Below are positions 26,210 through 64,000 of a stretch of 64,000 nt of DNA, piece after piece (the first letter of the stretch is position 1; each line of letters opens with the position of its first letter). Source of the DNA: Squalus acanthias (Eukaryota); NCBI GenBank assembly GCA_030390025.1, contig CM059427.1, positions 188,170,001 to 188,234,000 of the forward strand, in the 5' to 3' direction. Both the position numbers and the translations under genes were made by a program. The notes below the pieces were generated by a model. The model did not search any database, was not told where the DNA came from, and saw nothing but the letters and a program-made list of their open reading frames with translations.

Positions 26210-26317
26210 ATATCGAACAGCGGGAATTCACCCGAGCCGACAGGAAATAAAACGAATGATTCAGAAGAAGCCGTCGCATTACAGACCCTGAACTCTGATA
26301 CTGATCTGAGATCATAG
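26210..26317 (+). CDS. Gene A candidate terminal cytoplasmic exon 2 (ISNSGNSPEPTGNKTNDSEEAVALQTLNSDTDLRS*)
   Basis: atttcttgcctcttgtcag| acceptor, open in phase 0, hydrophilic; AATAAA near 26990. Confidence 0.55.
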   Translation: MSNSGNSPEPTGNKTNDSEEAVALQTLNSDTDLRS

Positions 26318-30997: not shown

Positions 30998-31153
30998 GAG
31001 GTGTGCCAAAATGCTGGTCATTTTTTTATTAAAGGCCGAGTTTCATGGTCCAACTTTTGTTTAGTGTTTTGGACATTATCTCCAGGTTGTGAGAACCAGT
31101 TATGTTATTGACTGTTTTTTTGTGTTTATTTCTATGAGTTTGTCATGAGGAAC

Positions 31154-31922: not shown

Positions 31923-32064
31923 GAATTGACACACACAGAGTTTGTAAAATAAATAAGTTTCTGTTTTCAAAATATACATGGCTGGTGGTTGGAATTATTG
32001 GTGCCTTGGCCGGCTTAGGGGTTGCGTGCTGGGTTGATTAGTGTTTGTAGCAATGGCAGGGGCC

Positions 32065-35906: not shown

Positions 35907-36185
35907 TGGCTGGATTTTGTCAGTGGAGGCGGGTTGGGTTCGGGTCAGGTGGTCGGCGGGTCCCGCCCCGCCTCCGATGTGAGGCGGGACAATTGAGCCA
36001 TTTTGCCCTAATTGGGCACTTGATTTCCAGCGTGTGGGACCCCCTGGCCCAATGAGTCTTTTGGTCCTGAAACTCGCCTCTGATGACATCATCTATGCAG
36101 CTGCATTTAAGGCCTGTAGCAGCCTTGGTTCTTTTTCTGCCTTACAACTTTTGCAATTTACTTCTGAGGGATTCGTGCAACAACC

Positions 36186-38186: not shown

Positions 38187-38420
38187 TCACAAGGGTAGTC
38201 ACTTGTGTGTCATGTTGTGTTTATTTTTGAAAAGCCACCCGTGAATTGATGTGATAAAAAAACTTGATGGCAAACTGTTGAAGTTGTGGGCTGTGTCATT
38301 TCGCAAATGGGACTTCCACATTGAGGGTATGGAAGTCATAGTGATAGGAATCCGCATGTTCTTGGCCATTGTCGATGCTCTGGTAAAAAGGTGCGAGGAA
38401 AAAGTGTTTGATTGTGCAGG

Positions 38421-39675
38421 CTAAGTAAATCTGGCCAAGATGAGTGCATCCCTTGCATCCCGGGCAGCAATGTGCTCGCGTGCTGCTGCCGTTGGTTGAT
38501 GCGTCTCCACAAGCTGTTTGTTGTCGCTCTTCTCCTCCTCCTCCTCCTCTTCCTCCTCATCTGAGGAGGCTATGCGATGAGCCACTTGTACCTCAGGCAG
38601 CTGCAAGCCACGATGCTGAGCCATGTTGTGAAGTGCACAGCAGACCACGACGATTCTGGAGACCCTGGCTGCTGAGTACTGTAGGGCTCCACCTGATCTA
38701 TCAAGGCATCTGAATCACATCTTCAGCAAGCCGATGGTTTGCTCGATTATGGATCTGGTGGAAATGTGGCTGGAGTTGTAGCGCTCCTCAGCTTCGTTGG
38801 ATGGCCTCCTCAACGGCGTCATTAGCCACGTCTTCAAGGGATAGCCCTTGTCTCCAAGTAGCCATCCGAAAAAGTTGGTTTGGTGGACTGAAGAGTGGAG
38901 GCACACGAGACTGCCGCAGGATGAAGGAGTCATGGCAACTGCCAGGGTACTTGGTGCAAATTGCAAAATTTCCTTCTGGTGGTCACACACCAGCTGCACG
39001 TTGAGGGAGTGGAAGCCCTTGCGATAGACAAAAATACCTGGATTGTGACGGGGTGCCTTAAGGGCCACATGTGTGCAGTCCATGATGCCCTGCACCCTTG
39101 GAAAGCCTGCCAGATTAGCAAACACAACCGCACGCGCCGTTAAACTTGCTTGATCCTTGGAGAAGTTGATGTAATTCTGCATGATGGCAAAGAGGGCATT
39201 GGTTACCTGCGTGATACAAATGTGTGCGGCCACCTGGGAGATGCCGCTGATGTCTGCTCTTGATCCCTGGAATGATCCTGAAGCAAAAAAGTTGAGTGCG
39301 GTGATGACTTTGACGGCCACTGGTAAGGGGTGTCCACCCGCTCCTCTGGGCTCCAGGTCTTGCTGCAGCATTGCGTAGATGTCACCCACTACCTCTCGCG
39401 AAAGTCTGAGCCTCCTTTGGCACTGCTGCTCGTCATGTTGAGGTAGCTGATCCTCTGTCTGTAGACCCTGTTTTGGGGATATCTCCTGCACCGACGTGCT
39501 TATATGCGCTGGCGCCTTCTGGCCTGTGCAGCTTCAGGTGGGTGAGCAGCAGCTTGGAGCTCCTGCTGTTGCTCCTGCAGTTGGTGCTGCTGTTGTTCAG
39601 GGTTCTGCTGCTGCTGCAGCTGTTCTTCGTCTGAATCTGATGTCTAGGAGGAAAGGAAATAAATGGTTCCCATGC
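38421..39675 (-). pseudogene. Harbinger transposase, frameshifted
   Basis: [41 protein letters not shown]. Confidence 0.85.
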
Positions 39676-40569
39676 TTCTGGTATGTACCTCAGTTGAGGA
39701 AGCGCTCATTCAAGGTGGGGAGAGGGGTTTCCCAGGAGGTCCCACTGGAGATGGGTCTCAGCCTCCAAACTTCCACAACAATGAGTAGGCCTGCTAAAAG
39801 TTCCCCCAGACCTGAGACAACAAAGTTCTGCCACCTGCAAATGATCAGTGGTGAAAACTCCTTTTTAATGGTGGAGCTGCCGCTGTTAGGAAGCCAGGAT
39901 TAACTGGCGTGTTCCAGAGGAGACGTGCAGCACGGGGGAAATGTGTTAAATTCAGAAAGGCCTCTCAAACTGGGATTATAGAGGCAATTAACTGGTTGTT
40001 AAGGGCCTTAAGGGCCTATCCCGCCTCTTGGAGGTGGGATGGAAACGGGATCTGAAACCCCGCTTTGGGGAAAATTGCTCAGAGGCGGGCTGGAGGCGGG
40101 ATCGGAGCCGCCCGCCATTTTTTGCGAATTTAACACCTCACACGCCTCCAAACCCGCCTCCTCGGGCCTGGCAAAATCCAGCCCTATGCCTCTATTTATG
40201 AAGCCCAGGATCCCGTATACTTTTTAAACTGCTTTCTCAACCTGCCCTGCCACCTTCAACAATTTGTGCACATACACTCACAGATTTCTCTGTTTATGCA
40301 CCCACTTTAGAATTGTGCCCTTTAGTTTATATTGCCTCTCTTATTTCTTCCTACCAAAATGTATCACTTCAGTGAAAAGACCTCCATCTGTCACTCACTA
40401 GACTTTGACATAACCAGAAGGGAACATTCACAGGGTTTAGGATCCTTCCTGTTTCTATGCAGAAGTTACCGTTTTTAACCAGCTTCCACTGTTTCATTTT
40501 TACACGTACTATTTTAAAATAACATCTACAAAAATCTGACTACATTGAAAATCATTCCTTGGTATTCTA

Positions 40570-43172: not shown

Positions 43173-45147
43173 GGATTATTTTCCCCAAATTTCCCAACTT
43201 GTGATCCCGTCATCATGAAGTGACTGACCTCCCCCTCCCCCACACCTACACCGCATCCTGAAATTCCTGGGGACTACTTGGTATTTTCTTCTAAATTAAT
43301 CCAAATAAAAGGAAATATTTTATGTCGATGAGATGAATTTTCTACGTTTCATTTCCTTTTCATTTTAACATTAAATAATAATAGGAACAACAATTCTAAA
43401 GACTGACAATAAGCGATATGACAGGGAATTAGGTTAAACTAGTATTTTTTGTCCCTGTCCCACACCAGCCATTCTGGACCACAGCCTGGTTACCATGAAG
43501 GTGAGAGCTGGGCTCAGGATTCCCTCAGACCCATTCCACTGCCTGTTGGTCCTTCTTCCCCTTTGTTTTACTTTCTCAATCCCTCCTCTCTCTAGAAATG
43601 TATCTGGTCTTACCTGGTATTTAATTCCATGACTAATATCCTTACATTGAAAGCATTCTCCCCGCCCTCCCTTCCTATTCCAAATTTAATTTGTGCCACC
43701 TGGTATTTGCTCCCCTCATCATACGGAGCAACTTGTACGGATCAATTGTGTCTGCTCTCGTTAGCATCTTGGAAATTTCTGGCTGACAACCTCCAGGTGT
43801 GACTCCCTTAACCTTTCCTGATAAATTACACTCCTGATCTCCAGAATCATCTTTCTTGATCATCTCTGTAATCTTCCGAAGGTAATAATATCCTTCCTGT
43901 GATTGTCCAAAGCTGTACAGAGTAGTGCAGAGAGGGTTCTACTCAGTTCATATAATGTTGTGCCTAAAGGTTTAAGTCCTTCTGAATCTGGTTATATTGT
44001 TATTGATTTGCCCTCTATCATCTTCTGTTATCTGGAGCGGTCGTCTCCCAATCCTCCCTGCTGGATTAGATGGGAGGACATCACGAATTAACCTTACAAG
44101 TGTGATGCAATCGGCCAAACATGCTAATGAACCCATCCCCGGGATTTGGGATGTTGTCACTGTTCATGACTGGAGGCGGCAGGGAGTCGCGGTCTGACCT
44201 TATTCAGTAGCGGAGCTGGAACCCCAGAATTTCGACCCTGGCACTTCATGGTATAACACTCCTTTCATTAAAAAACAGCAGCTTCTCTGATTTACCATGA
44301 GTTCTGCCATTTAAGATCCTCCAGTAACATTTAAAATAACAGATCACAAGACTGACCCCTTTGCGACCCATCCCGAAATGTTTTTGAGCTTGATAGTTCC
44401 CATTTCCAGCTACCCTCTGTTTCCTTTTTTGAGCTAATTTTCTATTTCAGCTCAAACGCGTTCAACACCAATGCTGCGTGAACCCTGAGCTGAAATGGAA
44501 GAGGAAGCTCGCCTGCCCTGTAGTTTCACAAGAGACAGCGCCATTTACTTTGTGCAGAGCAACGACTGAGAGCCTCAGTGTGTTGTGTGTCGCTGTGCTG
44601 GGAGCTTTGCTGCTCAGTCTCTGGACTTCTTCACTAGTCTCTTCCCACAAGGTAGGCAATCTTACTGCAATCATTCTTTTTAAAGGATTGGTTTAAATGT
44701 GGTTTAAATAACTGAACACATTTCTCAAAGATCTTGTCCCTTTTTGATCTTTTACTCTTTCAAATCAGTTCTTCTGTTGCACCCTGTTCCTCTTTAGACT
44801 AAACAACGGCATCAAGTGCTTATTTATTTGGCTTTGTCTCATTTTTTATAAAGTTCGAAGAATGAGGGTATCCACAAACCTAATCCTCCTTCTTTCATCC
44901 CACTTCTCCCCCATCCCACAATCTCTTTTGTCTGAAAAGCTGCAGATGGTGTAAGTGCGCACTTCTTACTTTCTCCTCTCCCCTCACCACAATCCTTTTT
45001 CATTTCAAATAACCAAGAACCATATTATCAAATCTTTTTAAAGGATGATGTATTTTTCTGAAATATGGCTATTCCATTACAAGTGACTGCATCTTCAAAT
45101 GCCATATCCTACCAACTGCACTACTAGCCCCAGCCACTGCTCAATTC

Positions 45148-46165
45148 ACCCGAGATGAAATGTTTTTGAATTACAAGTTGTAAAAGGTACAAATAGGAAG
45201 GCTTTGAAAATATAATATCAATAGATGACACCAAGCAATTACATTGTGTTTGTATTGAAAATTGAATAGTTAGGAGACACGACGTCTGGCTTACAAGTAG
45301 CTAAGTTATATTAGAAATTCAATAGGAAGACTTCCTAAGAATCACATCAAATAAATACTACTGTGATATTGTATTTTATGATGGTTTTTGCAACACCTAA
45401 ACAGGAGACAAGTCTAAAAGCTAACAGCTGATATGACAATAAAGAATAGAAGAAAGTCAGCAAAGAATGACTTGAGACAATTAGCTTACAGCAGGAAAAC
45501 TTCAAAGGATAAACCACCAAAAAAAGATATAAAAATAAGAGCTTTTCAGATGGAAAGTCAGAAGTCGCTGGGAAGGCAAGCGCCCCTCAACTTCACAGAC
45601 ACGCTCTGTAAGTTTTTCACTTTGAGTCTCGGGTAATCAAGGTATTTGATTTTGGTGGATATTCTGGATTAAGAAATAAGTAGAAGTGTGGAAATGTAAT
45701 GAAGTTAAGATTTGAGAATAAGGATCTCTGATAAGAAATGTAAGCTATTTGTATTTTGAACGGTTAAAGTTGCGATTGCGATAACTAAATGTTAACTAAA
45801 TGTTGGTTCTTTAATAAATCTATATATTTTTTAGAATTATATCACAGAGTATTTCTGTATCATCTCACAAACTCAATTTCTGTACACTCTTCAGAGAGGA
45901 GTTGCAGAATTCTGGGGGGTAAACCGGACCCTCATAATATCCGGAAGGTAACAGTCTAGTTAAACTTATTAAAAGTACTATCCGGAGGACAGTAACATCT
46001 TCAGACCGTTTCTTTCCTTTAGGGAGAGATAGTCTGACCTTTATACCCAATTAAGCATCTTATGGGATCTGGCTATCTCTAACTTTAGTTAAAGGTGAAC
46101 GTCTGGGGAATACGCCTGATCTGGGGTAGTCCGAAAGGGCATGGACTTGTAATTATCCCTTCACA
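45148..46165 (+). mobile_element. 5'-truncated solo LTR; same family as 63195-64000
   Basis: 45148-45490 matches 63660-64000; ends CCTTCACA, the inverted complement of the TGTGAAGG start at 63195. Confidence 0.75.
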
Positions 46166-47213
46166 CTGACCTTGAACACTTGTGTGAGGCCATTAAACTT
46201 CTTCCTGCACTGTATCTTGGAGCTAAACACCTGGCATTGACCTCCACGGCTATCTCTTGCCGCTGCCTTTTGAGCAAGTGCCTGGAGGACCTCCTGCCCC
46301 CCTGAGGATACTAGACATCTTTCCTCTGTTCCACCTCTTCAACCACGACCACCAGTGCAGCGACCGAAAGCAATGGTACACGCTCTCTCCCATGGTCAGC
46401 CATTGTTGATTGTTGCACAGCGCACTATTCCCATTGATGTCAGCACCTCCAGAGCCACAATCCCCCTCCCCTTGAAGGTGATATTTAAGTAGTGCTAGGC
46501 ACTCCCGAAATTGGGTCCCCTGCTGCTGCGTGCAGCTAATGAACAGCGCGGGGAGCACTGGCTTCACGCAAAGATCATGGTAATACGCAGGCAGCACAAA
46601 GTTATCATCCTGCCTGCATTTCAATCACCGGGCATGGGTTAATCACGCATCGCGATCCCTGCGCACACTTTCAAGGGTTATTCAACTTAACCCCTACTAC
46701 CTTTAAAGAATTCTGTGTGGAAATCTATAAAGAGAAGGATTACTGCCCATTTACAGTTATCTGGGCCTTGGCAGTTCATTGAAGGATGTCAATGTGGTTA
46801 ATCCAAAACAGTGACACTAAGAGAACCATCTACTGCTTTGGGTCACTCACATGACCTAAATCAGGACCAGTTTAACAAACCCATGACCATTTCATTATTG
46901 TCCGACATTTTAAAGATCCATAAGCAAAAAATCTAGCTTGTGTTTCGGAGTGAGTATTATACGTTTTATTTGTAACGCTAATTATAAAAATGATTAGTTT
47001 CACGTAACTTTCAGACACAAGGCTCACAATATAAGGTGTCAGCCGGGGCTCAGTGGTAGCACACTCACAGGTATGTTTGAGGCAGAGACAATTGCATCTT
47101 TAAGGGAAAACTGGATGAATATTTGAGGCAGGGTAAGATTTAGGTCTTTGAGAGAGAGTGGGGCAGTGGGGTTAGTTTTTGGATTGTTCGAGCAAAGTGC
47201 TGGCACAGACACA

Positions 47214-47305
47214 ACGGGACAAATTCTTCTGTGACGTAATCTTCAATGTCTCTCTGGAAAGGAGGGATGACATTGAGGATTACGTCACAGAAGAATTTGT
47301 CCCGT
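47214..47305. repeat. 37-bp-arm inverted repeat (hairpin) at a CR1 tail; partial second copy 48803-48875
   Basis: ACGGGACAAATTCTTCTGTGACGTAATCTTCAATGTC / GACATTGAGGATTACGTCACAGAAGAATTTGTCCCGT, one G-T mismatch, 18-nt loop. Confidence 0.9.
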
Positions 47306-47950
47306 CCTTTTCCCTTCCCATGGGCGGAAGAGACCTCCATAGGAGATCAACACAGTCTGTTTGCACATTGCAGAGGAGGGCACAAGCAGGGATGTGGTCA
47401 TGAGGACCTGGGTGCAGTGCCGCAAATGTTTCAATGATCTCAGTAGATCATGAAATGTTAGTACAAAGCCACACTCAACCTCATCCTGCTGTGCCACTCA
47501 TCACATCCCCATCACTCTGCCTTCCCTACCCTACTCCTGCACATCCTTACTCACATCAACTTACCTTGGACTGCCACCCATCCCTCTCTATCTATACTAT
47601 CACATTCCCATCTCACTAGCCACCCTCACACTCACCCTCATTCTAGTGCAATCAGACCAGCTAGCAACACAGAAGGGCAGCAACTTGGGGGTTTTATGCA
47701 ATGTTCATGTCAATTTTCTGTTAATGTGGTGTCACACATTGAAACCTTTATTTTCAATACTTTGCGTTCTTTGACAGATTTATGTGCACCTTTGGATGTG
47801 GTTTACTGAGTTGTCGTGAATGGTGAGACATAACGGCACCCCCACATGGTGATGAGTGTGAAAGGAATGGCTTGGACATTGTAGGGATGCTTTATACTGT
47901 TGGTGTGGGGTGGTGCCAACCTGGCGCATCATGTGGCATCCAGGGTGTAC
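47306..47950. mobile_element. Harbinger derivative fragment (inverted relative to 2169-3660)
   Basis: Myb exon remnant ([13 protein letters not shown]) and shared non-coding sequence. Confidence 0.7.
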
Positions 47951-47954
47951 ATAG

Positions 47955-48790
47955 AGTCATGAGTCATAAAGGCACAGAAGGAGGCCATTCGGCCCATTGA
48001 GTCCATGCCGGCTCTCTGTAGAGCAATCCAGTCAGTCCCATTCCCCCGCTGTATCCCCGTAGCCCAGCAAGTTTATTTTGCTCAAGTGCCTATCCAGTCT
48101 CCCCTTGAAAATATTGAGTGTCTCCGCTTCCACCACTTCTGTCGGCAGCGAGTTCCAGGTCCTCACCACTCGCTGCGTAAAAAGGTTTATCCTCCCATCC
48201 CCCCTGTGTCTCTTGCCCAAAACTTTAAATCTGTGTCTCCTAGTGCTTGTACCATCAACTAGTAGGAACAGCCTTTCCCTGTCTAGGCTATCCAAACTCA
48301 TCATAATCTTGTACACCTCTATCTAATCACCCCTCAACCTCCTTTGCTCTAATGAAAACAAATCCAGCTTCTCCAACTTGTCCTTGTAGCAAGGATCCCC
48401 CATTCACGGAACCATTCTGGTAAATCTCCTCTGCACCCTCTCAAGTGCCTTCACATCCTTCCACGGGGGAGTCCAGAACCAGGGGTCACAGTCTAAGGAT
48501 AAGGGGTAAGCCATTTAGGAGTGAGATGAGGAGGAATTTCTTCACCCAGAGAGTGGTGAACCTGTGGAATTCGCTAACGCAGAAGGCAGTTGAGGCCAAT
48601 TCATTAAATATATTCAGGAAGGAGTTAGATATATTTCTTAAGGCTAATGGGATCAAGGGATATGGGGAGAAAGCAGGGACAGGGTACTGAATTTGGATGA
48701 TCAGCCATGATCGCATTGAATGGCGGAGCAGGCTCGAGGGGCCGAATGGCCTACTCCTGCTCCTATCTTCTATGCTTCTATGATTCTATG
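47955..48790. mobile_element. Two CR1 3' fragments, head-to-head (minus 47955-48460; plus 48460-48790)
   Basis: FTQRVV motifs on both strands; the plus copy has the same 3'UTR as 20217-20316. Confidence 0.85.
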
Positions 48791-49744
48791 TACTTGCAGA
48801 CACAACAGGACAAATTCTTCTGAGATGTAATCTTCAATGTCTCCATAGAAAGGAAGGATGGCATTGAAGATTATCGTGAGCAATTATCTTTGTATCCATC
48901 CAAAAGAGCCTAATCTTGGACATAATCATTTACTTGTTACAATTTTGCCTGAGATGTAGAGGAACAAGAATTACAGCTGAGAGAATAAACACAAAGACAG
49001 TGATCTTGTGGAAGGAATGGTGTTCATCCAACCTCATTCCAACCCATTTCCACACACACACACACAACCATGAACACACGTGTATTTGTGTGCAGACATG
49101 CATTAGAGAGAAATAACTTTTATTTATATACTGCGCTTGACATCGAGGCAGCATTTAACCATGTGTGGCACCAAGGAGCCCCAGTAAAACTGAAGACAAT
49201 GGGGATCAGGGGGAATACTCTCCAGTGTTTGGAGTCAAACCTGGGACAAAGGAAGATGTTTGTGGTCATTGGAGGCCAATTATTTCAAACTGAGGATATT
49301 GCTGCCCATCATTTTGGTAGCTTAGGACGCCATTTTGTGCCCTTAAAACAGGGGCTGCTTGGTGAGATTTTTTCGGACTATAAGTCCCAGACCCAGATAG
49401 GCTGCTTCCAACTCCAGGCTGCTGATTTGAATCATGTGCAATCTCAAGACAAAGAATTTAATTGCTTAATAGAGTGCACCAACCTGAGGGAACATTATCA
49501 AATAGCTCGCACAACTGACAAGCAAAATATATTGGTGCACAGGTGTGATCGAACTAAGCGGACTCTGATTTGGCTCAGTGTTAGTGATGAACAAACCAAG
49601 ACTTTCCTTTTGGTAACTATTTCTTTTAACGCTAATCCTGACCTGTATTTTATATTATTTTACATCAGGTTGTTTTTTAAAAATGTATTCATTCCTGGGA
49701 TGTGGGCGTCGCTGGCAAGGCCAGCATTTATTGCCCATCACTAA

Positions 49745-50820
49745 ATGCCCTTGAATTTAGAATCTAGATCGAGGGGGCATAGTCTCAGAAGAAGGGGTCG
49801 CCCATTTAAGATGGAGATGAGGATGAATTTCTTCTCTCAGAGGGTCCTGAATCTTTGGAATTCTTTACCCCAGAGAGCGGTGGAAGCTGACTCATTGAAT
49901 AGATTCAAGGCTGAGATAGACAGATTTTTGAGCAACAGGCGAGACCAAGGTTATGGGGAGCGGGCAGGAAAGTGGAGTTGAGGCCAAAATCGGATTAGCC
50001 ATGATCTCATTAAATGGCAGAGCAGGCTCGAGGGGCTGAATGGCCTGCTCCTGCTCCTATTTCTTATGTTCTTATGCCCTTGTGAAGGTGGTGCCCTGTA
50101 ATATCCTTTCACTGGGGGACTAAAAATACTTGTGAAGTTTTTTTTTAAATGCACGGCAAAGATTTCTTTTAATAAATTATTCTTGAGATATTGGCATTGC
50201 TGGTAAAGCTGGCATTTTTTGCACATCACGAGTTGCCCTTGAGAAGGTGTGGGTGGGCCTTCTTCTTGAACCTCTGCAGTCCATGTGTGAAGGTGCTCCC
50301 ACAATTCTTTTAGGTTGGGAGTTCCAGGAATTTGACCCAGCGACAATGAAGGAATGGCGATATATGTGCAGTTAGGATGCTGTGTGACTTTGAGGGGAAC
50401 TTGAAGGTGATGGTGTTCCCATGCACCTGCTGCCCTTGTCCTTCTAGGTGGTGGAAGTCGCAGGTTTTGGAGGTGCTGGCGAGAATGCCTGGCGAGTTGT
50501 GCAGTGCGTCCTGTAGATAGGACACACTGTAGCCATGGTGCGCAAGTGGTGGAAGGCGGTATGTTGCCAATCAAGCAGACCACTTTGTCCTGGATTGTGT
50601 CGAGCTTTTTGCAAGTGGAGAGTATTCCATCACATTCCTGACTTGTGCCTTGTAGGTGGTGGAGACGTTTTGCGGAGTGAATTGATTCAGCAAACCCAGC
50701 ATCTGACCTGTGCTAGTAGGCACGACATTTATCTGGCTTGTACAGTTGAGTTTCTGGTCAATGGTGGTCCCATGGAAGTTGCTGGTGGTGGATTTGCTGA
50801 TAATAATGCCATTGAAAGCA
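49745..50820. mobile_element. CR1 3' end (+, 49755-50075) nested among LINE fragments (-)
   Basis: RGHSL..FFSQRV..WNSLPQ; (ttcttatg)n tail; the minus-strand fragment is related to 15690-16410. Confidence 0.75.
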
Positions 50821-51396
50821 TGTTATTATACAGATATTATCAATAAATGGAGCAGCAGTGAATAAGAAAATGCAAATTGCTGTTATTTCATATTGTCATT
50901 TGTATAAAATTCATAAATCTTCTGATCAGTTTTAATTAAATATGTATAAGTGAAAATTTTAGTGGAGTAATCTTTTGCAAGTGTACATTTTGTCCATTCT
51001 TCCTATAATAGGTAATTGCATTTCACTTTTTATTTCTACTTCAATGACTTTATTTTCAGTTGGAAAGTCTATGTGGCTGGTGGATAAGAGGTGGATTTTG
51101 CATGGACCATCGTTTATTAGGATGAGTAACTTTTATTAAACTTCTCACAGGAAGAGGTGGAGAAGAAGTTTATGAAGAAATTTACTGAAGAAGTTTATTG
51201 TACATTTTACAGTTCCAAGTTAGAATGGGGAAATAATTTGGAAAGCTGTTTTACCTCATTTCTTTCTCTTCACAGTCTGAAGTGTTAAACATATTCAGGA
51301 AATGTGCCTCGGTTTTACTTCTGGTGGTTTTCTGGTGCTATATATATATCTATATCTATATGTATATTTCTTACAGGCAAAGAGACTGAATCTGAA

Positions 51397-51484
51397 ATGA
51401 GGCTACGATTTTTCTGCAACAAAATGCCGGCTGGTTTGATGTTCAGTTTCTTTGTGTTTCTACTTCCGTCTGTTTTCACACAAA
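51397..51484 (+). CDS. Gene B leader (signal peptide) exon
   Basis: MRLRFFCNKMPAGLMFSFFVFLLPSVFTQ, ends CAAA|gtaagt in phase 1. An upstream acceptor ttcttacag|G at 51377 implies a 5' non-coding exon. Confidence 0.75.
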
Positions 51485-51623
51485 GTAAGTGCATTATTTC
51501 CACCAATCACAGTCATATTGTTTTACTTTATCATAGTGTTTAATGAATTCACCCAGCTAGTATTCAGCAAGCAAGTAAGGTCTTTATTTTCATGTCCCTG
51601 CTCCTTTAAACAGGATGTGGAAG

Positions 51624-51640
51624 TTCACTTTTCAGTTTCA
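51624..51640 (-). promoter_or_regulatory. ISRE/IRF-like motif in the intron after the gene B leader
   Basis: Minus strand TGAAACTGAAAAGTGAA (tandem GAAANN); motif match only. Confidence 0.3.
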
Positions 51641-54107
51641 ACAATGGCTCAAGTTAATAAAATGCAAAATGATATATTTCTCATTGTTCTTCAACTCCTT
51701 TTCCCAGTCTATATATTAATCTCACTGTCTGTCTATCCATCGACTCTTGCATGTAGCAATCTTCCATCACACAGCTCGATGTCACATTTCAAAGTGTCAC
51801 ACTCACTCTGTGGAGCACTCTCTGTATTCCACGATATTTCAGATTTCAACAGCCTAACAGATTGAATGTGGTACAGAATGGTTTCAAAATTAATAACAAT
51901 ATTAAAATGTTAATAAATGTTAATAACATTTGGAATTATTGGGAATCATTTTTTGTGCTCGAGGCTGTGCAACATATAAAAGTTACAGTTGGGTAAAACA
52001 TCATTTGAAAAGGTTTGAAGGTTTGTCGCTGATCCTCACTTCGGGTCACATCTTGGTTTAGTGTCGAAAGGTGTTTAAACATCACTGTGAATACATTGTG
52101 CACAGAGCCATTGTGGTTTTGGTAATTGTGATGTGAGCTTGTATTTAATCAAGAAAACAGACACATGGGATTTACTGCTTTAGATCACTTCCCTTATGAC
52201 AATGCAAATAAAATAATGGTTAAAATGAGGGTTTTATCAGTTTATTTTACCCTTGAAATGAAGGAATATGATGATTCGAAAGTGGAAATATAGCGATGAA
52301 CTATTGACTGATTGTTGTGACCACTGTCACCAGAGGCCACCTGGAATTATCCAAATGCATTAACGTTAAATGTCACCGTCACATCCACAGTTGACACCTT
52401 TCAATGATAAGGCAAAGCACCTGGTGGAAAGAGGCTGCAAGTCAGGTTTATCTTCCAAGGGCTGGTTTATCTCTGTCACGTTTCAGACAAGCGTGGAGTG
52501 GACACAGGAACCGCCCGATCTCCGCCCACCTCGTGAAACCCCGTCACAGGGAGGCGACCCGACATAACCGTATCCTGCACCAATCTCTCTCCCGCTAGCT
52601 CCTGTCCACCCTGATAATGTTCCCTGTAGACCAGGAGTCGCAAGGACATTTGGAGCCTTTATCTGCTGAAATTAGCCATGTCCTCCCTTTTTATTTTTTG
52701 TAGTAATGATGTATGTTACATTTTACAGCACAGAAACATCTCCCTCATGTATTTACTTATCTATGTTCAGAAAGCTCTGGTAATAGATACACAGAATATC
52801 TACTGGAAGTGTTCTGTTTTCCCCTGTAACAGTGCCTGCAGTGATGTGACATGATACAGTGCTTTCTCCTCATGTATTAGTGCTTCATTGTAACCTTCTC
52901 TGGACTGAACTCCTCAATGAAGGAGCTTTCCCAGCTTCTTGGGATTGTAATGGGAGAGGACTTTGCTCTCCCTTCTTGCCCAATTTTGGATAGATTGTTG
53001 TCGGCAGGGGCAGAAAGTGGGGATGGGGATCCGGCGTGCTGCTCCCTGCAGATTGTCGTCACCTCACTGAATATATGGACCCAAATATGGAGAGATTTAT
53101 TCAAATTGCGTGGAGAGGCCAAGTGTTATCAGATGTTACATTCACTGTCATTACTGCCAGAACAATGCTGGAACACAAGGGACAGCAGCATGTTCCCGGC
53201 ATCTAGCGTTGTGTTGGCTTGCGGGAGGGGATTTCAATTTCAAACACCTTTCTGAAGTAAAGCAATTGATCATGAGGCGATCAATCACCCGCCAAATTTG
53301 TCATTGATCCATAGTTGCCCCTCCTCTTCAGCTGCCTCGCAGGTAACCAGCCCTGATCTGCTGCTGCACGACCTCGAGACCCACAGCAACCACCTCCCTC
53401 CCTCTCCCAGGTGGGTTCCTCAGATCAAAGCACTAGTCCTGCTGGGAGCCCACAATAATTATGGAAATGATGCTGATCTCAGGAAATTCCCCGGGGTTCA
53501 CGGTTTGGGAAGACAGGCGGGCACGGAGTCTGCCACGCTGACCTACAGACAGATTATGGCCAAGTGGAAAATCCTGTCTCCCTTTGTTATCGGTAATCCT
53601 GTAGGTAGCCTGGTCACTGGTGGTCCAGGAGAACCAACAACGTACTGTGCATTGCACAAGAGGAGGGGAGATCACTTGTAGAGATCGCTGACCTGACTTA
53701 TGAGCCTGAAGTGTTATGACTGCACCAGTACTGTATTTAGTTTTAGGAGAATACTGATTATTGTGCTGGTAATTCAGATTTCTCAACAATATGGGAGTAA
53801 TGATTCCCTTTTCACACTCCCAGTAAATGCTGGAAATACGGATTGTGAAATTGGACACTGCAGGCCCACGAGGTCAGAGTGCAGTGGCAGAAATTCACCC
53901 TCTAATGTCCTAAAGTATCATTGGATTAGGCCAGATTGTTCCAGACAGTCAGCTCTTCACCGGGGTGTGTATGTGTCATTGCTGAATCCGTGGTATATAA
54001 AAACATGACTGTAAATAAATGAAGTCCAATATTATTAATTACAAACATGGGATTAAGGAGCTGCGATTTAAATATTTAAATACTTTCATTGTTCCTCTTT
54101 CTAACAG

Positions 54108-54448
54108 GAAACCCAAATCATATTTATTTTTTGGATGAGGGAGATGACATTCCATTAAAAGGACCGGACAATCCTGGGAATGGCCCCGTTGTCTGGGAAT
54201 GGAAACCTCACTCAGGGCAAGAAATCCAGCGACTGGTTACTTTTCACAAAAGGAGTTTGGGCTGGTGGGACGCACAATGGAGCAATCACTACAGAAACAG
54301 TGACTTGTACCAGATGATAGAATGGAATTATTGGAACATTAATCTGAGAATTAGAAATCCCACGTTTAAATGTGCGGGATCGTTCATCTTGACTCAAACA
54401 CAGCCGAGTAATAAAATCCTGAAACTGTACGAAATATTTGGATCAAAG
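54108..54448 (+). CDS. Gene B Ig domain D1 exon (V-like, lacks canonical Cys pair, Trp-rich)
   Basis: ttctaacag|GAAACCCA ... TCAAAG|gtgagt; [40 protein letters not shown]. Confidence 0.85.
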
Positions 54449-55982
54449 GTGAGTGGGACAAAGTCTAGAAAAGGAAAAATAAAATGATTCTCAGTAAATA
54501 ATTTCATGTGTAATGATGAGAGATTGACAGGATCACGTGAGATTTATATCACCCAGTGCAGAGAGCATCTCTCATTAAAACAACCAGGGGAAAGATTTTG
54601 TTCATTGTTTCTCCTGAAATGGTCAACATGACTAAAAACATTTCGACAATTTCACCAGAAATAGCAAACCGAGGAACCTACCCCACAGAGAGTATTATGG
54701 TCTGTACAGTGGCACACTCTCTGTCAGATGTACTAAATTCTGTTACCAAACCAATTGATCTCTGTAGTAATGGGCCTCAGCGCGATGTGACAGGAATAAG
54801 ATTGGCCAGAATCACTGCTCCTGATTGCTGTCCAGTGAACCTGTTCGATGTGTCACTTGGTTGAGGTCCCAGAGGATGTCAAGTGTCCCTGGAACTTGTA
54901 CTATGCCAAGGAGTTAACACCTTCAGAAAAGCAGGGAGAGACATGGCAAAAATATTTAAAAACTTTAGTATAAATAAATCAAATTCTTTAGTTTCTGCCA
55001 ACTAAGGAGGCTGCTCAACAGCTGCACTTTCTGGTTGGTTGATGTGATTAACATCTAAATGAGGCTGAGGTCACTGTCAAATGAACTTGGTACAAAATAT
55101 AATCCAATCCTGAAATGTCGTAGTGGCCAAAATATGATTGTGACTGCACTGGGCCTGGACCATTGCTCCTGAGGTGTTGGCCCAAACTGCACCAGAATGA
55201 GTTGACCATAACAGAAAGTCAACTCATTTACATTTGTTAGTGGCACTCATGGTACATAGTGCGTGGTACACGGGGAATGTCACACGGGTCGGGCACCAGA
55301 GTGTTGGGCTCCAGCAGCTAATGTTTGCCACCATTATTTTGGCCTGGCTTTGGAACTAAAGTCCCTGTTGAAGATTTGATTCTTAATTGTCATGTTGTAG
55401 GTGGGACTGAAAGTCAGGGTGGGCATTTTTAGAACAAGCCTCTCCTGAAGTGCCGTTCCTCATGGACGCTCAATGATTGGAGCCCTGCTCAGGAGCATTT
55501 TGGGAGCCCACTAATTGAAATAACGTAATGACTGTTGACGTGGATTTTGTGCACAGGCTCCCAGTGTGTGTGTTGGGTGGTCTTACTGAAGTGTGCGAGG
55601 CACATTGAGAACAGAGTGGGACTGGAGCCTTCTCCATGTCTGATAATATGGGCGCTACATTTCCATCACACCCTCCTCTGGTGAGATTCCATCACCTGTC
55701 CATTGTGGTGTCGGCTTCCACAAATGCCATCCAAACCATGTAACCTTAACCTGACCCCGATTACTCCAGCAGGGTCAGGGGTAAAGGTCATCAGCCGCAC
55801 TCTGGCTCATTCACGCTGGCAGAGCTTGACTGAGAATTTTCAGCCTCACTGTGTTATTCTACTGATAAAATGCACTTGTGTGTAATCTGGCCTGACTCCA
55901 TAATGCAACAAGGTAAAAGTGCTGATGATGGGCACATCCTACGGTCAGTTAGAACCTAATCTTATTGATTTGTTCTTCACAG

Positions 55983-56252
55983 TTGAGTCAAGTCCACAGA
56001 GGCCTTTGGTGGGCAGTGACATTACACTCAGCTGTACCATCTCCAAACTCTCAGATACAGTCAGTCTTCAATGGAAACAGAGAGACTCATCTCAGCAGAA
56101 CAGGATCAACACTGATCAGATCCGACGAAATAACACAGTCTATCTGATCGTCAAACATGTTGCAGTAGAAGATAAGGAGTTGTACGTGTGTGAAGTGCAG
56201 GAAGATGGATCCATTATTCTCACAGGACAAGCAGATTTTTATGTGGACCAGG
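55983..56252 (+). CDS. Gene B Ig domain D2 exon
   Basis: ttcttcacag|TTGAGTCA ... GACCAGG|gtaagt; 78 of 90 aa identical to gene A D2. Confidence 0.9.
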
Positions 56253-58242
56253 GTAAGTGCAGTTACCTCACAGTAGGTATTAAAGAGTTACTAACATAAA
56301 ACTGTTACATATAAAGTGGAGTCATACATGTCAACCATCAGCACTTCATGCTTACAGTCAGCATGTGGGGGCCCGGCGCACATATCAGCATTGAACAAAA
56401 AACTGGCCTCTCGCCCCTCAATGCCACTTCTAACCGAGTTCTGCAGCTATTTGAAGTGATTCCAGCTGCTGCATACTCTAGGCTTCAAATAAGCATTCAG
56501 CTGGGAGCAGGACTGAGGGAAGAGGGAAGGGCAGGGAATCAATGACCATGAACGGGAGAGGGAAGGATGGAAATGATGGCAATGTAGAGGAGAGATGGTG
56601 GGCAGAGGGAAATGACAGAGGCTGGGAGTGGGGCTTTGGGGGAGGAAGAGGGAAAAGCTGAGAGTGGAACTTTGGAGTAGAAGATAAGAATTTGCATTTG
56701 TGTCAAGTGCATAAAATAGACCCTGTTATTAAAAGAGCATCAAAACTATTGGTGTGGATCAGGGTAAGGTCAGAACTACCTTACAGTAGATATTAAATAG
56801 TTACTGAAATAACACTGTTATAAAACAAAGTACAGGGAGCACAGAGACAGCATATGCTTTTACTACAGACTGGGACCTTATTTTCTCTTTGGAACATTGG
56901 TGTAAATATAACATTGCAATACAGTGGGCAAATATCAACAACCAGGTCTAGATGGATCTGACAATAAATAGCTAAAGGGATGAAGGTGGACAATATTCTC
57001 ACACAGCTAATCAGTTACCCAAACACAGAGACAATTATTTTCTAAATATGGTTCACTTTACTCACTGCAAGGGCACAGCATTAAAGTCCAGCCGTGAATA
57101 TCTATTCAGTGCTCTTGCAATACACACACATATGGCCAGAATTTTCCAGGGTGGCAGCGGGGGCGATCGGTGGTGGGTCGGGTGGGAAAGTTATTATTTT
57201 TGTGAGTGGTTTGGGAACCTGCTGTCATCCCGCCCCCATCGCCTTTCCCCCAGGTGCCTCTGTCATCGCGGAGCCGACCCAACTGGCAGAGGCGGGCGGC
57301 CCAATTGAGATGATTAACAGCTCGTTTTCAGACCATTAACAGTCTTTTTTAACTGACTTTTAAAATTTTACTGCACGGCCACGGCAAGCACATTGCTCAG
57401 GAAGCACGTCTGTCAACCTGAGGCGGGAGTTCCATTGTCATTGTTCCAGCTGATTACTTGACAGCATCTAATGTGCAGCAAAAGCCCCCACCTGACAGAT
57501 GATCACTTTCCTCAGGCAGAAACTGTTGCTCAGTCCATTTCCAGCACAGATTCTGCAGGCTGCAAGTGTTTCCAGCAAAGTCTCCATCCAGTCTCACCTC
57601 ATTGGAAGAACTCTCTCACCATTGACAGAATGCTTCTGTTATCTGTACTTCACCTGCCATCTATTCCTTCAGCATGGGAGCCATTGATACTGTCTCAACT
57701 TGGTCCTCAGAATTGGAACACGATGAGCCCCAACACCAGCAGCACCAACAACAACACCAACCTTCTCCGCAATCACCTGATGCTGCACAGGACAGCGGGC
57801 ATCAGCAGCCAAGTGCATTGCTGTCCGCGAGGCCAGGGATGGCCTCATCATGGCCAGATTTAGTTAACCTTACGCTGTATACCTATATGGCTGCCACATG
57901 AAGCGCCAGGTTGTCACCACCCCACACCAGCACCACAAAGCATCCCTAACAATCCCCAAGCCATTCCTTTCACACTCATCACCATTGCGGGGATACCGTT
58001 ATGTCTCACCATTCACTACAACTCACTAAGTCACTTCCAAAGGTGCACACAAATCTGTTGAAGACTGGAAAGTGTTGAAAATAAAAAAAATTATGTTTGA
58101 CATCACACTAACAGAAACTTCACATAGACATTGGAAAAAACACCCAAGTGGTTCCCCTTGTGTGTTGTTAGTTGCACTAGGATGAGGGTGAGTGTGAGGG
58201 GTGGCTAGTGAGATGGGGATGTGATAATGAGAGAGAGGGATG

Positions 58243-59887
58243 TGTAAGGGATTCGTGCTGACGGCTGCTCTGTGCGGAGGCTGGGTGCTAGTGCGGGGTT
58301 AGGCCTTGTTGCCTGTTCTGGTCTCCAGCCAGCCTGGTAGCACTAGACACCTGTGAGTGGTTCGACCCACTCGCCCTTACGGTTCTGACACTGGACTTAG
58401 GTGCGAGAGCAATAATGCAGAGAAAACTCAGGTAGACCCGGTTGAATAGTACGAAATTGAAAATCTTTATTGCATATTGTTCAAGATTACGAAATATATG
58501 TCATAAGCACAGATTAATGACAGTACAAGCTTACATACATTTATGAAACTAGGTTTAGGGAAACGAGGAGCGCACGACACATCGTAAAAGGGGACACACA
58601 TTATAGTTATCCTTAAAACAAAAACCCTCCCCTATCAATGCCTGTCCTAATGTAGATCTGTAGGATCGAGACTCATGCTCACCACTCGTGATAACTCGGA
58701 GAATTCCGAAAAGCTGCTCGGATGTTTTCGCCACAGCACCTGACTATTCACGTGTTGATCAGGGGTCTCTGTACCCCACTTGTTTACTCGCTTCTGCTCC
58801 GGCTCGCAGGCTGGACCGTCTGCTGTCATGAAGATCTGTGTTGGTCTCGGATTTCTGATACTACTCAAAAAAGAGTCTTCCTGTGCCCTACACTGGTTGT
58901 CGGTAGAACTCGAAGAAAAGTCTTCCAGGGCCAGTTGTGGAGTAGCCGATAGAATTCAACGAAGTGGTTAATCGATTTTCGTGCGTGGTCGGGGTTTACT
59001 GAACGCGGCGGCACGTGTAGTCGTCTTCTTCTCTTCTCAACACATCTCATCTCATCTCCTCTCGGGCCTTCGGTTCCAACACCGTTTACCGACTTCTCGG
59101 GATGGTGCGCCCGCTTATATGCCTTCGCAGACCAGCTCTCCACAGATCTTCGTGGCAAGCCACGAGGTTGACTCCCGGAAAATCAGCGGATCAGAGAATG
59201 AGAGTCAAGAGCCCTCAGGGATAAGAGGAATAAGCGCAAGAGAGAAATGGATGTTTGGACACTACAGTTATAGTACTGTAATTCCTTATCTCCCGCCCAT
59301 TCTTAAAGTTCATCTTTTGTCATGTTTTGGCACTCAAACTTCTTGTATGGGGTGGTACTTGTCGTTAATGGGTTTCGGTGATACTTGTAACTGTCTGAGT
59401 ACCCGTTAATATTTCTCCCATTGTGGAACCGGCTATGAGTCTCCCTGGAGGGGTTTTGGGACCTCCGAATTCTTGCTGTGAGTACCCGCGAACGGCTCTC
59501 TCATCGTAGAGCCGTGGGGAATTTGCGTATCAATGTCTTTGGATGGGCCCCTTGATTGCCCAGTACAATAGCTCTCATTTGTGCATGGAAAACCCGATTC
59601 CAGCACTTATATTCCTTGCTTGGGTGTTAAAATGCAAAACAATCTCGTCTTGTCTTATCTCAATATGCTGAGTCCTGTCCGATCTTGCTGAAATGTTTAT
59701 TGAAACGCCATCTTGTCTGCCTACTGAAAGTCCAGAACCTTCTGCCACGAGGCGTGGCGGCCATTTTACAGGCTGCTTGTGTCCGTTTTGAAACCTGACA
59801 GCATTTTGCTGAAATAAAGCTGTTTATACGAAAACATATGTCTCTATCTCATTATTTCGAAATTGCGATAAATTTGGGAATTCTACA
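58243..59887 (-). mobile_element. 1645-bp solo LTR in the gene B D2-D3 intron
   Basis: TG...CA termini, perfect GATG TSD, empty site at about 3275 in gene A, AATAAA on the minus strand near 58468. Confidence 0.92.
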
Positions 59888-60460
59888 GATGGGTGGAGGT
59901 GCAAGGTATATTGGTGTGAGTTAAGATATGCAGGATTAGGGTAGGGAAAGCAGAGTAATGGGGATGTGATGAGAGGCACAGCAGGATGAAGTTGAGTGTG
60001 GCTTTGTTCTCACCTTTCCTGATCTAATGAGATCATTGAAATGTTTGCAGCACTGCACCCAGGTCCTGCTGATAACTTCCCTGCTTGTGACCTCCTCTGC
60101 AATCTGCAAACAAGCTGTTTTGGTCTGCTGTGGAGGTCCCTTCCACATCGGAAAAGAAGAGGATGTCCCTATGTGCTGTTATTCCCTCCATAAGCACATG
60201 GAGGGAGTGATCGGAGAACCTGGGTGCTCAGTGTTTGCAGCTCTCCAATTTTAATTTTTATAAACTTCTGTTGTATTTTGTGAATTGAAGTCACCCAAGT
60301 TGTGCAATTTTTACACAGTTCATAGCTTTGATAAATTAGGATATGATGATCATAACACAAAGTATTTTTCTATAATTGTGGTTGGTAATTATTCTGGCTT
60401 TTCTCTCTACCTCAGCAACTGTAAACTTCTAACATGTTGTTCTCTGTCTCTCTATTGCAG

Positions 60461-60802
60461 ATTTATTTGGGAGGAGTTACACACTTTATCGGTCAGGCAC
60501 AGATCACAGTGAACTCGACCTGATTTGCTATTATGTTTCTGCTACTTTCAACACTGCTGCATGGACCTGGAGGTCACATCATCTTCAAAATCAGGAGAAA
60601 GAAATAGCATCTGCTTCAATATCTCAGCTCATCAATGGAGACAGGACCTACTTTGGGAGTCGACTGGTGCCCACAGTGGCAGAGTTTAATGGCAAGAACT
60701 TCAGTGTGAGGATTGTCCCTGTGCTGTTTGAAGATGCAGGAGATTACACATGTTCTCTGGGATCAAATAAATTTGTGACCATTAAACTAATCACAGTTAA
60801 AG
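60461..60802 (+). CDS. Gene B Ig domain D3 exon
   Basis: tattgcag|ATTTATTT ... GTTAAAG|gtagga; EDAGDYTC. Confidence 0.9.
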
Positions 60803-60880
60803 GTAGGAGACAGAATGTTGCTGTTGTTTTCAATGATCAAGTTATTGTTTAAAATCTAAATGATTTTCTTGTTTCCACAG

Positions 60881-61150
60881 TCACAGCTGAACCATCTGAT
60901 GCAGTGACTGAGGGAGACACCGTTACCCTGACCTGCTCTGTCTCTGATGTCACTGAATCAATGAGACTTGTTTGGATCAGTAGCGATGGCAAAACTGTTG
61001 GAGAAAAAAAATGGAATGGACAGAATGGGGAAGAGAAATCATTGAGACTGATTATTCCGAAAGCTGATAGAGGCAGAGGGAACTGGATATGTGCTTTGTT
61101 TTATCAAAACAGGCCCCGGGTTTTAGTCCCGTACTATCTGGAGCCCAGTG
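60881..61150 (+). CDS. Gene B Ig domain D4 exon
   Basis: ttccacag|TCACAGCT ... CCCAGTG|gtaagt; GNWICAL. Confidence 0.9.
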
Positions 61151-62466
61151 GTAAGTGACTCAGGGTTTGCTCTTTATATTTATATTCTCGATAGAAAATT
61201 CTTATCACTTATTGTTCTTGTTGCCAGAAGTAGCCCCTCCTTTATATCCTGTGTGTGAGGCTCTACAGTGGGGCAGAGTCTCAGAAAATCTACCCTGAGA
61301 TAAATACTGTGGCTACAAGGGCAGGTCAGATGCTGCGTATTCTGCGACAAGTGACTCACCTCCTGACTCCCCAAAGCCTTTCCACCAACTACAAAGCACA
61401 AGTCAGGAGTGTTATGGAATCATATCCACTTGCCTGGATGAGTGCAGCTCCAACAGCACTCAAGAAGCAAAGCTTCAAATTCAGAATTACCATGTGGCTC
61501 CCTGTACACCAACCCTGTCCTGCAACATCACCTGCTCTCTACATCCTGTTAAATAACGTGAATTCTCAACAACACTCAAGAAGCTCAACATCATCCGGGA
61601 CAAAGCAATCCGCTTGATTGGCAGCCCCTCCACCACCTCCACCACCGGCGCAACGTGACTGTAGTGGGGACCATTTACAAGATGCACTGCAGCAAATCAC
61701 CAAGGCTTCTTCAACAGCACCTCCCAAACACACAAACTCTACCACCTAGAAGGACAAGGGCAGCAGGTGCATGGGAACACCATGACCTCCAATTTCCCCT
61801 CCAAGTCACACACCATCCTGGCTTGGAAATATATCGCTGTTCCTTAATTGTCGCTGGGTCAAAATCCCGGAACTCCCTACCTAACAGCACTGTGGGAATA
61901 CCTTCACCACACGGAATGCACAGGTTCAAGAAGGCGGCTCACCAACACCTTCTCAAGGGCAATTAGGGATGGGCAATAAATGCTGGTCCTGCCAGTGACG
62001 CCCCCATCCCATGAATGAAAAAACAAACTCAGCACAGCCTGGGATTGAGCTTGGGACGTACCTGGTCTGTGTCTCAACTACACTCTTGGTAAACAGTCTG
62101 AGACAGGGCAAGTTTTTTTTGACAGCAGAGTGGTACAGAAGCCATTTCCATTGGTTTTCTGACCCAGAATTGATCAGAATACTGAGGCAGAATGCCTAAA
62201 GAAATTCACAGCAAAAAGTCATTCTCAGCTGCAAACATTGTAATTGAAACTCCCAACTCAACAGGCTCAGAGAAACTCTTCTTCTCTGCCTGTCTCAGCT
62301 CATCCTGGGAACATCGGTGCCTCATCACTCTCATTCTAACTGAGGGCTCGTGCATTGTGAGCGCAAGAGCAGGAAACTCGAGGCTGCAGAGCCACTGGCC
62401 CGTATTATAATATATGTAAATTAGCTCATTTGGGAACTCCACAGGCAGATCGTGGGAAGAGACAAA

Positions 62467-63194: not shown

Positions 63195-64000
63195 TGTGAA
63201 GGAAATAGCTATATTCCAAGAAATACATCATCCTATAATCAGATTTGATAATATTAAAACATGACAAACTGGGGTTAAAAATCTGAAACCTCGGCGACAC
63301 AGGCCATAAAACAGAAATACAGGCTTATGAGATAAGATGGTTTGTTAACACAAAGCTGTGAACACAAGCTTTGAAATGGGAATTGGTTTCTAAATACAGA
63401 GACAAAGCCCTATTGAAGCAAACCATTGGTGCTTCCAGAATGTCTAGAGTTTGGAACAAAACAATAGGAATGACCCAAGTAAAGTGTCAAAATCGAACAC
63501 GTCGAACAGGTGCACAGAACATTAAAAAAAACAAGTGCCTTTGAAAAAATGACATCAAGTAAAAGAAATACCTGCCGTAAAATAGTTTTATGTTAAACTT
63601 AGAAACAGGAGACACGGTTCTTAATATAAGCAATTGAAGTAAATAAGAAATGCATGGAACACCCGAGATGAAGTGTTTACAAGTTGTAAAAGGTACAAAT
63701 AGGAAGGCTTTGAAAATATAATATCAATAGATGACACCAAGCAATTACATTGTGTTTGTATTGAAAATGGAATAGTTAGGAGACACGACGTCTGGCTTAC
63801 AAGTAGTTAAGTGACATTAGAAATTCTATAGAAAGACTTCCTAAGAATAGCATCAAATAGATAAATCAGTAATAAACATTTTATGATGGTTTTTGAAACA
63901 CCTAAACAGGAGACAAGTCTAAAAGCTAACAGCTGGTATGACAATAAAGAATAGTAGAAAGTCAGCAAAGAATGACTTGAGACAATTAGCTTACATCAGC
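63195..64000 (+). mobile_element. LTR (5' part, runs off the window)
   Basis: TGTGAAGG start; homology to 45148-45490. Confidence 0.7.

Follow-up and report, generated by a model that had tools for sequence, protein, structure and literature searches.

In a window of 64,000 nucleotides from Squalus acanthias (assembly GCA_030390025.1, contig CM059427.1, positions 188,170,001 to 188,234,000 of the forward strand), we describe two immunoglobulin (Ig) receptor genes, A and C, which are true tandem paralogues. It is probable that they belong to a cluster of likely CD4-shaped paired leukocyte receptors. In this cluster, A would be an activating member that signals via an adaptor bound to its transmembrane (TM) lysine, and C a four-domain copy, frameshifted as assembled, that has likely exchanged DNA with A. 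Coordinates below are positions within the window, and all exons are on the + strand.

Tandem duplication of the gene A block

The duplicated block of gene A (1-5052), which comprises the D1-D2 intron, the D2, D3, and D4 exons, and 195 bp of the next intron, is 96.2% identical to 54997-61345 (4515/4693 over all aligned columns). Self-blastn of the window recovers it as three matches on the same strand, each with E = 0: 1-3281 with 54997-58245 (95.3%), 3275-3730 with 59888-60317 (91.2%, with a 26-bp gap), and 4012-5052 with 60305-61345 (95.3%). Homology continues through the introns and takes in a Harbinger-derived transposable element (TE) fragment common to A (about 2170-3700) and C (about 57135-60290). 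The initial annotation had aligned 1-5053 with 54997-61343 in the same orientation, through introns and old TE fragments, and self-blastn agrees with its ends to within 2 bp. The match extends to base 1 of the window, and projection of the D1 exon of C (54108-54448) puts the predicted D1 exon of A 549-889 bp upstream of base 1, as had been estimated before. The copies are spaced 55 kb apart, and by self-blastn the 45 kb between them is not duplicated. Beyond 61345, C is unlike the intron after A-D4 and gives no match to it.

Gene A has eight Ig domains. The window holds seven Ig exons (D2-D8), the TM exon, and the last exon, which join into a single open frame of 773 residues with eight-domain periodicity. 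Exon D2 (1020-1289, C2-type, phase 1/1) has AG/GT sites, an open frame, and a Pfam match to Ig_2 (4e-8). Exon D3 (4168-4509, V-type) has splice sites, an open frame, and a V-set match (6e-5), and exon D4 (4588-4857, C2-type with a WxC motif) is likewise identified by splice sites, open frame, and Pfam. In the second unit, exons D6 (12593-12865, C2-type) and D7 (13880-14218, V-type) have splice sites and open frames. Exon D8 (15269-15538) is of the D4 (unit-1) class, as judged by its identity to D4 exons and its position in the D4 clade of a tree. Pfam places D3 and D7 in the V-set, and D2 and D4 in the C2/I-type. Exon D5 (10150-10494) is an open, cysteine-less frame of D1 type that is likely a V-type Ig domain and receives no match from Pfam. 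The V-type assignment of D1 and D5 depends on the predicted model of a relative, in which the D5-type domain is a beta sandwich. Folded alone, D5 of A reached a predicted local distance difference test (pLDDT) score of 59 and gave nothing but weak V-set entries in Foldseek, with no match at E <= 0.001, and was not used as evidence. In D6, the cysteine of strand F is replaced by tryptophan. By sequence comparison, this is a conserved unit-2 feature and not decay, because the same YxW form is found in 43/107 D2-type domains of relatives. The TM exon (24093-24196) carries a lysine inside its hydrophobic run and shares 65-85% identity with the TM exons of relatives with a TM lysine. The last coding exon (26210-26317) encodes a tyrosine-free tail of 35 residues with the stop codon and is 60-75% identical to the tails of the same relatives.

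Transposable elements are found in the introns of gene A. The D4-D5 intron contains a Harbinger-type DNA transposon (5165-9255) with a DDE_Tnp_4 frame at 5694-6536 and a Myb/SANT frame on the opposite strand at 8533-9051. Relatives of this element lie at about 28740-33720, with a 410-codon transposase frame (4e-38), and at 35890-40190. The intron before the TM exon holds two elements of the LINE (long interspersed nuclear element) type back to back, at 18123-20216 and about 20400-23840. The former has a 697-codon reverse-transcriptase frame on the + strand (Pfam RVT_1, 1e-31), and the latter is longer, lies on the - strand, and has a GDSL/OSK-like ORF1 (open reading frame 1) frame. Tandem arrays occur at 27491-27835 (42 bp x 8.2) and 29506-29667 (54 bp x 3.0).

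Elasmobranch relatives and their likeness to CD4 and LAG-3

A search with D3 gave 66 relatives and a 12-sequence profile gave 124, with 120 listed, making 141 distinct proteins in all; they represent clusters in the database, with isoforms and partial models among them, and not gene counts. All relatives among the matches listed are from sharks or rays, nearly all are named 'uncharacterized', and they carry 1-4 copies of a four-domain unit. An immunoreceptor tyrosine-based inhibitory motif (ITIM), typically IHYGSI or VIYAQI, is present in 61 of the 141 proteins. In another 29 a short tail accompanies a TM lysine, 16 carry a TM segment but no ITIM, and 35 are without a detected TM segment. For 8/29 TM-lysine forms there is an ITIM partner with 91-99% ectodomain identity, in seven cases within the same species. 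Pairs without LOC (gene) numbers could be isoforms; three pairs have distinct gene numbers, namely LOC132405177/176 and 261/180 in Hypanus and LOC134348860/859 in Mobula. Among the matches listed, the LOC numbers on one chromosome amount to 8 each in Mobula hypostoma and Hypanus, 7 in Pristis, 5 in Leucoraja, 4 in Carcharodon, and 3 in Scyliorhinus canicula. In a quick tree of D2-D3 from 61 shark units, paralogues cluster by species, and lysine and ITIM forms are intermixed within the species clades. The first unit of A and C are sisters in this tree, with a value of 91 in the Shimodaira-Hasegawa-like approximate likelihood ratio test (SH-aLRT), and stand beside Pristiophorus and Heptranchias, a placement that fits a squalomorph-like shark. 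The earlier proposal of a tandem paralogue in a multigene cluster of leukocyte-receptor type is thus borne out by the 3-8 loci per chromosome in relatives, the clustering by species, and the sister position of A and C. Its word 'recent' holds only in that, on this tree, the duplication appears later than the splits from the Pristiophorus (sawshark) and Heptranchias (sevengill shark) lineages.

The same family includes RefSeq proteins of elasmobranchs listed as 'uncharacterized', such as LOC119965405-07, LOC121281409-12, and LOC134348851-60, as well as the nurse shark protein V9NJF3, called 'obscurin-like'. Single domains of these proteins are mostly 55-95% identical, and their names come from automatic annotation only. 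A literature search with six identifiers of these proteins returned 0 papers. No description of the family was found in a search that left most subscription journals, and with them much of comparative immunology, outside its reach, which makes this weak evidence of novelty. Genes A and C are likely members of a family of CD4-shaped paired receptors in sharks and rays that has been little studied.

Wider profile searches add relatives in teleosts (eels, tarpon, a mormyrid, salmonids, and cyprinids). Among 34 teleost relatives, 24 have an ITIM, 3 a charged TM segment, 4 a plain TM segment, 2 no TM segment, and 1 matches an ITAM-like pattern (ITAM, immunoreceptor tyrosine-based activation motif). 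The tail motifs thus point to a likely family of paired activating and inhibitory receptors that has relatives in teleosts. A further, third type of tail, with a TM arginine and no ITIM, is seen in P0005, P0067-P0069, P0115, and P0127 (Mobula and Hemitrygon) and is possibly a second activating route. One protein of 2139 aa, P0142, contains several family units with internal TM-like segments and is likely a tandem cluster of a fish that was annotated as a read-through.

The unit of this family has the V-C2-V-C2 order of CD4 and LAG-3, with each domain encoded by an exon of its own, as holds for shark CD4 and LAG-3 D1 (PMC10768021). A WxC motif in strand F is found in 113/114 D4-type domains, including all three in the window, and is described as very unusual and typical of CD4/LAG-3 in PMC10768021. 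The best named protein match in a second-round search was shrew CD4 (2e-9, 80% coverage), and the wide profile searched against PDB retrieved LAG-3 first (1.3e-14), followed by CD22 (6.4e-13). Structural comparison was based on P0012, a Heterodontus relative modelled with AlphaFold (mean pLDDT 63); the model has continuous G-A strands over each V-C2 joint (164-179, 373-387, 579-592, and 782-797). Residues 65-469 of this model align best to D1-D4 of CD4 (Z 15.3, 313 residues, root-mean-square deviation (rmsd) 14.2 A), and its D7-D8 align to D1-D2 of CD4 with Z 13.5 and rmsd 3.5 A. In Foldseek, CD4 had the best target-normalised TM-score (0.40-0.41). The family is thus built like CD4/LAG-3 and is likely related to them.

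The family also differs from CD4 and LAG-3. The unit is repeated 1-4 times, the family is multigene compared with one CD4 plus one LAG-3, and a canonical ITIM or a TM lysine takes the place of their tail motifs. In addition, the cysteine pair of D1-type domains is absent in 95/97, with two cysteines in only 2/97, unlike in CD4/LAG-3. According to PMC10768021, the tail motifs Cx(C/H) and (F/Y)xxL(D/E), the latter in a tail encoded by a single exon, define the CD4 and LAG-3 genes, respectively. The LCK-binding Cx(C/H) motif of CD4 is absent from the tail of A and present in 1/106 tails of relatives, and the LAG-3 motif is absent from A and present in 3/106. By these motifs, the family is neither CD4 nor LAG-3, because its tails do not carry what defines them; WxC in D2, one defining family feature, also fails, with 0/107 D2-type domains (YxC in 59, YxW in 43). 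No flanking marker gene of the LAG-3/CD4 region was found within the window.

Paired receptor clusters (KIR, LILR/PIR, Siglec-5/14 and 11/16, CEACAM, DICP, and NITR) resemble the present family in their tandem multigene layout. As here, they combine members with an ITIM and members with a charged TM segment, have pairs of opposite type whose ectodomains are nearly identical, group by species, and include pseudogenes. Homogenisation of ectodomains is reported for paired receptors (PMC3210942), and DICP and NITR follow the logic of ITIM versus charged TM with DAP12 (10.1101/2021.06.11.448072). Unlike these families, the one described here has its own domain plan, and none of them appears among the named matches. 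DICP have D1-D2 units with C23/C104 and DICP-specific cysteines (10.1101/2021.06.11.448072), whereas the pair is absent from nearly all D1-type domains here. By eye, no germ-line joining (J) motif of NITR, FGxGTxLx(V/L), was seen at the ends of the window's 11 Ig exons. The modular domain immune-type receptors (MDIR) of skate are alike in being multigene activating and inhibitory Ig receptors of cartilaginous fish, and they resemble CD300/TREM/pIgR (both PMC3031540). V-type domains here have none or only the two core cysteines, apparently unlike in MDIR, and no MDIR or CD300-like name occurs among the listed matches, a comparison by match names without direct alignment. In profile searches, pIgR is only a weak generic PDB match. 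Teleost G6f-like has four Ig domains and one TM segment, as here, and signals through its own ITAM (PMC3528668); a cytoplasmic ITAM was found in 0/106 elasmobranch tails, and no match is named G6f-like. We infer by analogy that the family may work like KIR/LILR, DICP, or NITR paired receptors without membership in those families. The initial comparison with KIR/LILR and NITR therefore holds for the logic, as activating-type and ITIM-type forms coexist, and not for the scaffold, which is nearest to CD4/LAG-3 rather than to KIR, LILR, NITR, LITR, or CHIR.

The D4 and D8 blocks and the status of copy C

Copy C consists of a leader and four Ig domains. The leader (signal peptide) exon (51397-51484, phase 1) is the sole leader-like exon in 44000-54107 and resembles the N-termini of relatives. 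Exon D1 (54108-54448) is cysteine-less and, with its 341 nt, lacks one base close to the 3' end; splicing to D2 therefore shifts the frame and, as assembled, leads to a stop inside D2. Exon D2 (55983-56252) is identical to A-D2 at 94.8% of DNA and 86.5% of protein positions, and exon D3 (60461-60802) to A-D3 at 94.2% and 84.1%. Exon D4 (60881-61150) retains WxC and is identified by splice sites, an open frame, and alignment to A. The intron after it (61151-62385) is 94-96% identical to 15539-16772 and shares its type with the one that follows A-D8, which in A leads to the TM-lysine exon. A scan of the 2.7 kb after D4 found no TM exon, and the window does not contain that of C. Because the post-D4 intron of C is of the kind found before the TM exon of A, an activating-type tail is predicted for C outside the window. 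As assembled, C would be a pseudogene, the source of a secreted D1 fragment, or the product of an assembly error in a run of G.

Further features were observed around C. A possible non-coding first exon with a strong donor at its end was noted by eye at 44561-44651, 6.7 kb upstream of the leader. The D2-D3 introns of both copies contain a degenerate 3' half of a D2 exon with its donor region (1705-1866 and 56669-56914, 72-75%), likely a relic of an older exon duplication. A 348-bp repeat (45147-45494 and 63660-63999, 91%) reaches the window end; as the start of a third copy, it was not distinguishable from a repeat of the long terminal repeat (LTR) type. A 93-bp fold-back at 47214-47305 is 86% self-complementary, and part of it recurs at 48797-48873.

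C is colinear with the first unit of A and then with the block of its last domain. This block (15232-16772), which comprises exon D8 and 1.2 kb of flanking intron, is 94.6% identical to 60844-62385 in C, and its first 100 bp are identical. At the DNA level, A-D8 is 96.3% identical to A-D4 and 96.7% to C-D4, while D2/D6 and D3/D7 are only 82-85% identical. Compared with two-unit relatives, D5 (26/26), D6 (29/29), and D7 (30/30) are closer to unit 2, whereas D8 is closer to the unit-1 D4 in 27/30. In a quick tree of 114 D4-type domains (89 columns, many open forks), D8 falls within the unit-1 D4 clade (SH-aLRT 99). Taken together, the identity of about 96%, the counts in relatives, and the tree indicate that the last domain of A has been replaced by a unit-1 domain of C type, and 15232-16772 is likely a recombination or conversion tract. 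Three routes could account for this: a four-domain activating gene supplied the 3' end of A, C descends from an A-like gene that lost D5-D7 by looping out, or the D4/D8 block was overwritten by conversion. The three routes, as well as direction and order, are indistinguishable, because in the 502 bp shared by the three D4 blocks the odd sites (11 in A4, 11 in A8, and 6 in C4) show no clean switch point. A single crossover inside D4 of C was sought in these sites and not found. Mismatches between A and C number 7 in 2501-3274 compared with 109 in 1-2500 (p 3e-7, with the boundary picked after looking), which suggests a later conversion. The D7-D8 intron of A carries a 972-bp insertion (14260-15231), bounded by inverted ends and containing a tandem array of 18 bp x 13, and it abuts the 5' edge of the block common with C.

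The label of an 'expanding cluster' given before is supported with regard to the tandem copy and not with regard to simple expansion. Birth-and-death turnover fits better, because C, a copy of an eight-domain gene, has four domains, is frameshifted as assembled, and appears to have exchanged a domain with A. Additional flanking copies and copy-number differences between individuals, as proposed in the initial annotation, may exist.

Several other explanations were considered. The identity of 96.2% between the copies, together with the loss of one base within a G run, which could be an assembly error, would suit a second, shorter haplotype of gene A that the assembler set in tandem. We regard this as very improbable, as the introns differ by 3.6% (136/3828 mismatches) and both copies have private insertions. 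C alone has an LTR-like insertion of 1.6 kb (58243-59887) with a 4-bp target-site duplication and an empty site in A; a shorter relative of it was found by self-blastn at 31154-31922. A alone has a 281-bp segment (3731-4011) flanked by 13-bp direct repeats. Moreover, C skips 10.2 kb of A (5053-15231), the 45-kb spacer is single, D2-D4 differ at 35 residues, and multi-copy tandem clusters are the norm among relatives. Equally hard to credit is a division of A into two genes, D1-D4 and D5-D8-TM, the second with its own leader, even if the D1-D4 pattern is repeated in D5-D8 and one weak leader-like candidate appears at 9522-9582 when the donor is relaxed. Homology and de novo scans between D4 and D5 found neither a TM exon nor a family-type leader that has a consensus donor, which rules against a separate gene starting at D5. 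The D4-D5 junction of A also agrees with the consensus of 29 eight-domain relatives, in which unit-2 class D5-D7 come directly after D4. A dead-end status of C, as a partial duplicate of A that lost D5-D7 by looping out from exon D4 to exon D8, does not function as a receptor, and is irrelevant to expansion, is quite possible, although on balance doubtful. The frameshift in D1, the likeness of C to unit 1 of A upstream and to A-D8 downstream, and the lack of a TM exon in the scanned 2.7 kb speak for it. In contrast, the leader, D2, D3, and D4 are open with intact splice sites, intact four-domain genes are common among relatives, and the D4 of C shows no single switch from A4-like to A8-like sequence. 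For the family, a pseudogene of this kind would agree with our preferred explanation; the two part only over the status and origin of C.

The genes could also be B7-, nectin-, or CD226-like adhesion or co-signalling molecules, with generic Ig-fold similarity to CD4/LAG-3. A profile built from sharks only and searched against PDB retrieved CD276 (4.6e-8) ahead of LAG-3 (6.4e-6), with PD-L1 also in the lead, and some short relatives are automatically named 'CD276 antigen homolog'. This explanation is nevertheless unlikely, given the near-universal WxC in D4, which is CD4/LAG-3-typical according to PMC10768021, the first rank of LAG-3 with the wider profile, the recovery of CD4 over 80% of its length, and its leading TM-score. 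For the CD4-shaped paired receptor reading itself, the order of the shark-only profile is one of several results that weigh against it. The structural lead of CD4 is modest, as nectin and JAML are about 2 Z lower, the four-domain rmsd is 14 A, and the model is that of a relative; Foldseek E-values prefer long Ig chains such as DSCAM and titin. The missing WxC in D2, the weak leader-like candidate within A, and the lack of a switch point among the D4 blocks belong here too. The leader and D1 of A, and the tail of C, fall beyond the window, and the signalling of the family is inferred from motifs alone. The comparison of A and C gives nonsynonymous/synonymous differences of 12/2 in D2, 19/1 in D3, and 5/4 in D4. 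The nonsynonymous excess in D3 is weak: tested against synonymous sites it gives p = 0.055, and against the intron that diverges most p = 0.17, and a firm claim of positive selection was not reached. Against pooled introns the value is p = 0.006, and diversification of D3 under selection is suggestive only.

Proposed mechanism and meaning

In our proposed mechanism, unequal crossover or gene conversion between four-domain units would alter the number of domains (4, 8, 12, or 16). Recombination would also shift ligand-binding ectodomains between inhibitory and activating tails and homogenise them. ITIM-mediated inhibition operates through SHP-1/2, and members with an ITIM would recruit such SHP-type phosphatases to inhibit the cell. 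Members with a lysine, including gene A, would pair with a DAP12-type ITAM adaptor and activate it. Ligand binding may fall to the membrane-distal domains D1-D3, which may diversify under selection that pathogens or polymorphic host ligands probably exert. Mean pairwise identity among the 29 eight-domain relatives is lowest in D1 (49%), followed by D3 (56%), and highest in D5-D6 (72-77%).

A broader hypothesis, which we hold at low confidence, is that a third, multigene branch of CD4/LAG-3 exists in sharks, rays, and several teleost lineages and forms a KIR/LILR-like paired system of cartilaginous fish. Its rod-shaped units might read major histocompatibility complex (MHC) or MHC-mimicking ligands, and recombination between units might exchange specificities between tails of the inhibitory and the activating type.

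On its own, a tandem duplicate within an immune cluster is commonplace, and the family revealed by it is less ordinary. For cartilaginous fish, few paired innate receptor families have been described, and in the literature examined here CD4/LAG-3 in sharks is treated as essentially a two-gene pair. The exchange of tail and domain in this window can be mapped at its boundaries, so that the recombination mechanism is open to direct testing. If the proposed reading is true, the genes would provide named candidates for 'on/off' receptors of shark natural killer (NK) or myeloid cells and would bear on the origin of the V-C2-V-C2 co-receptor scaffold.

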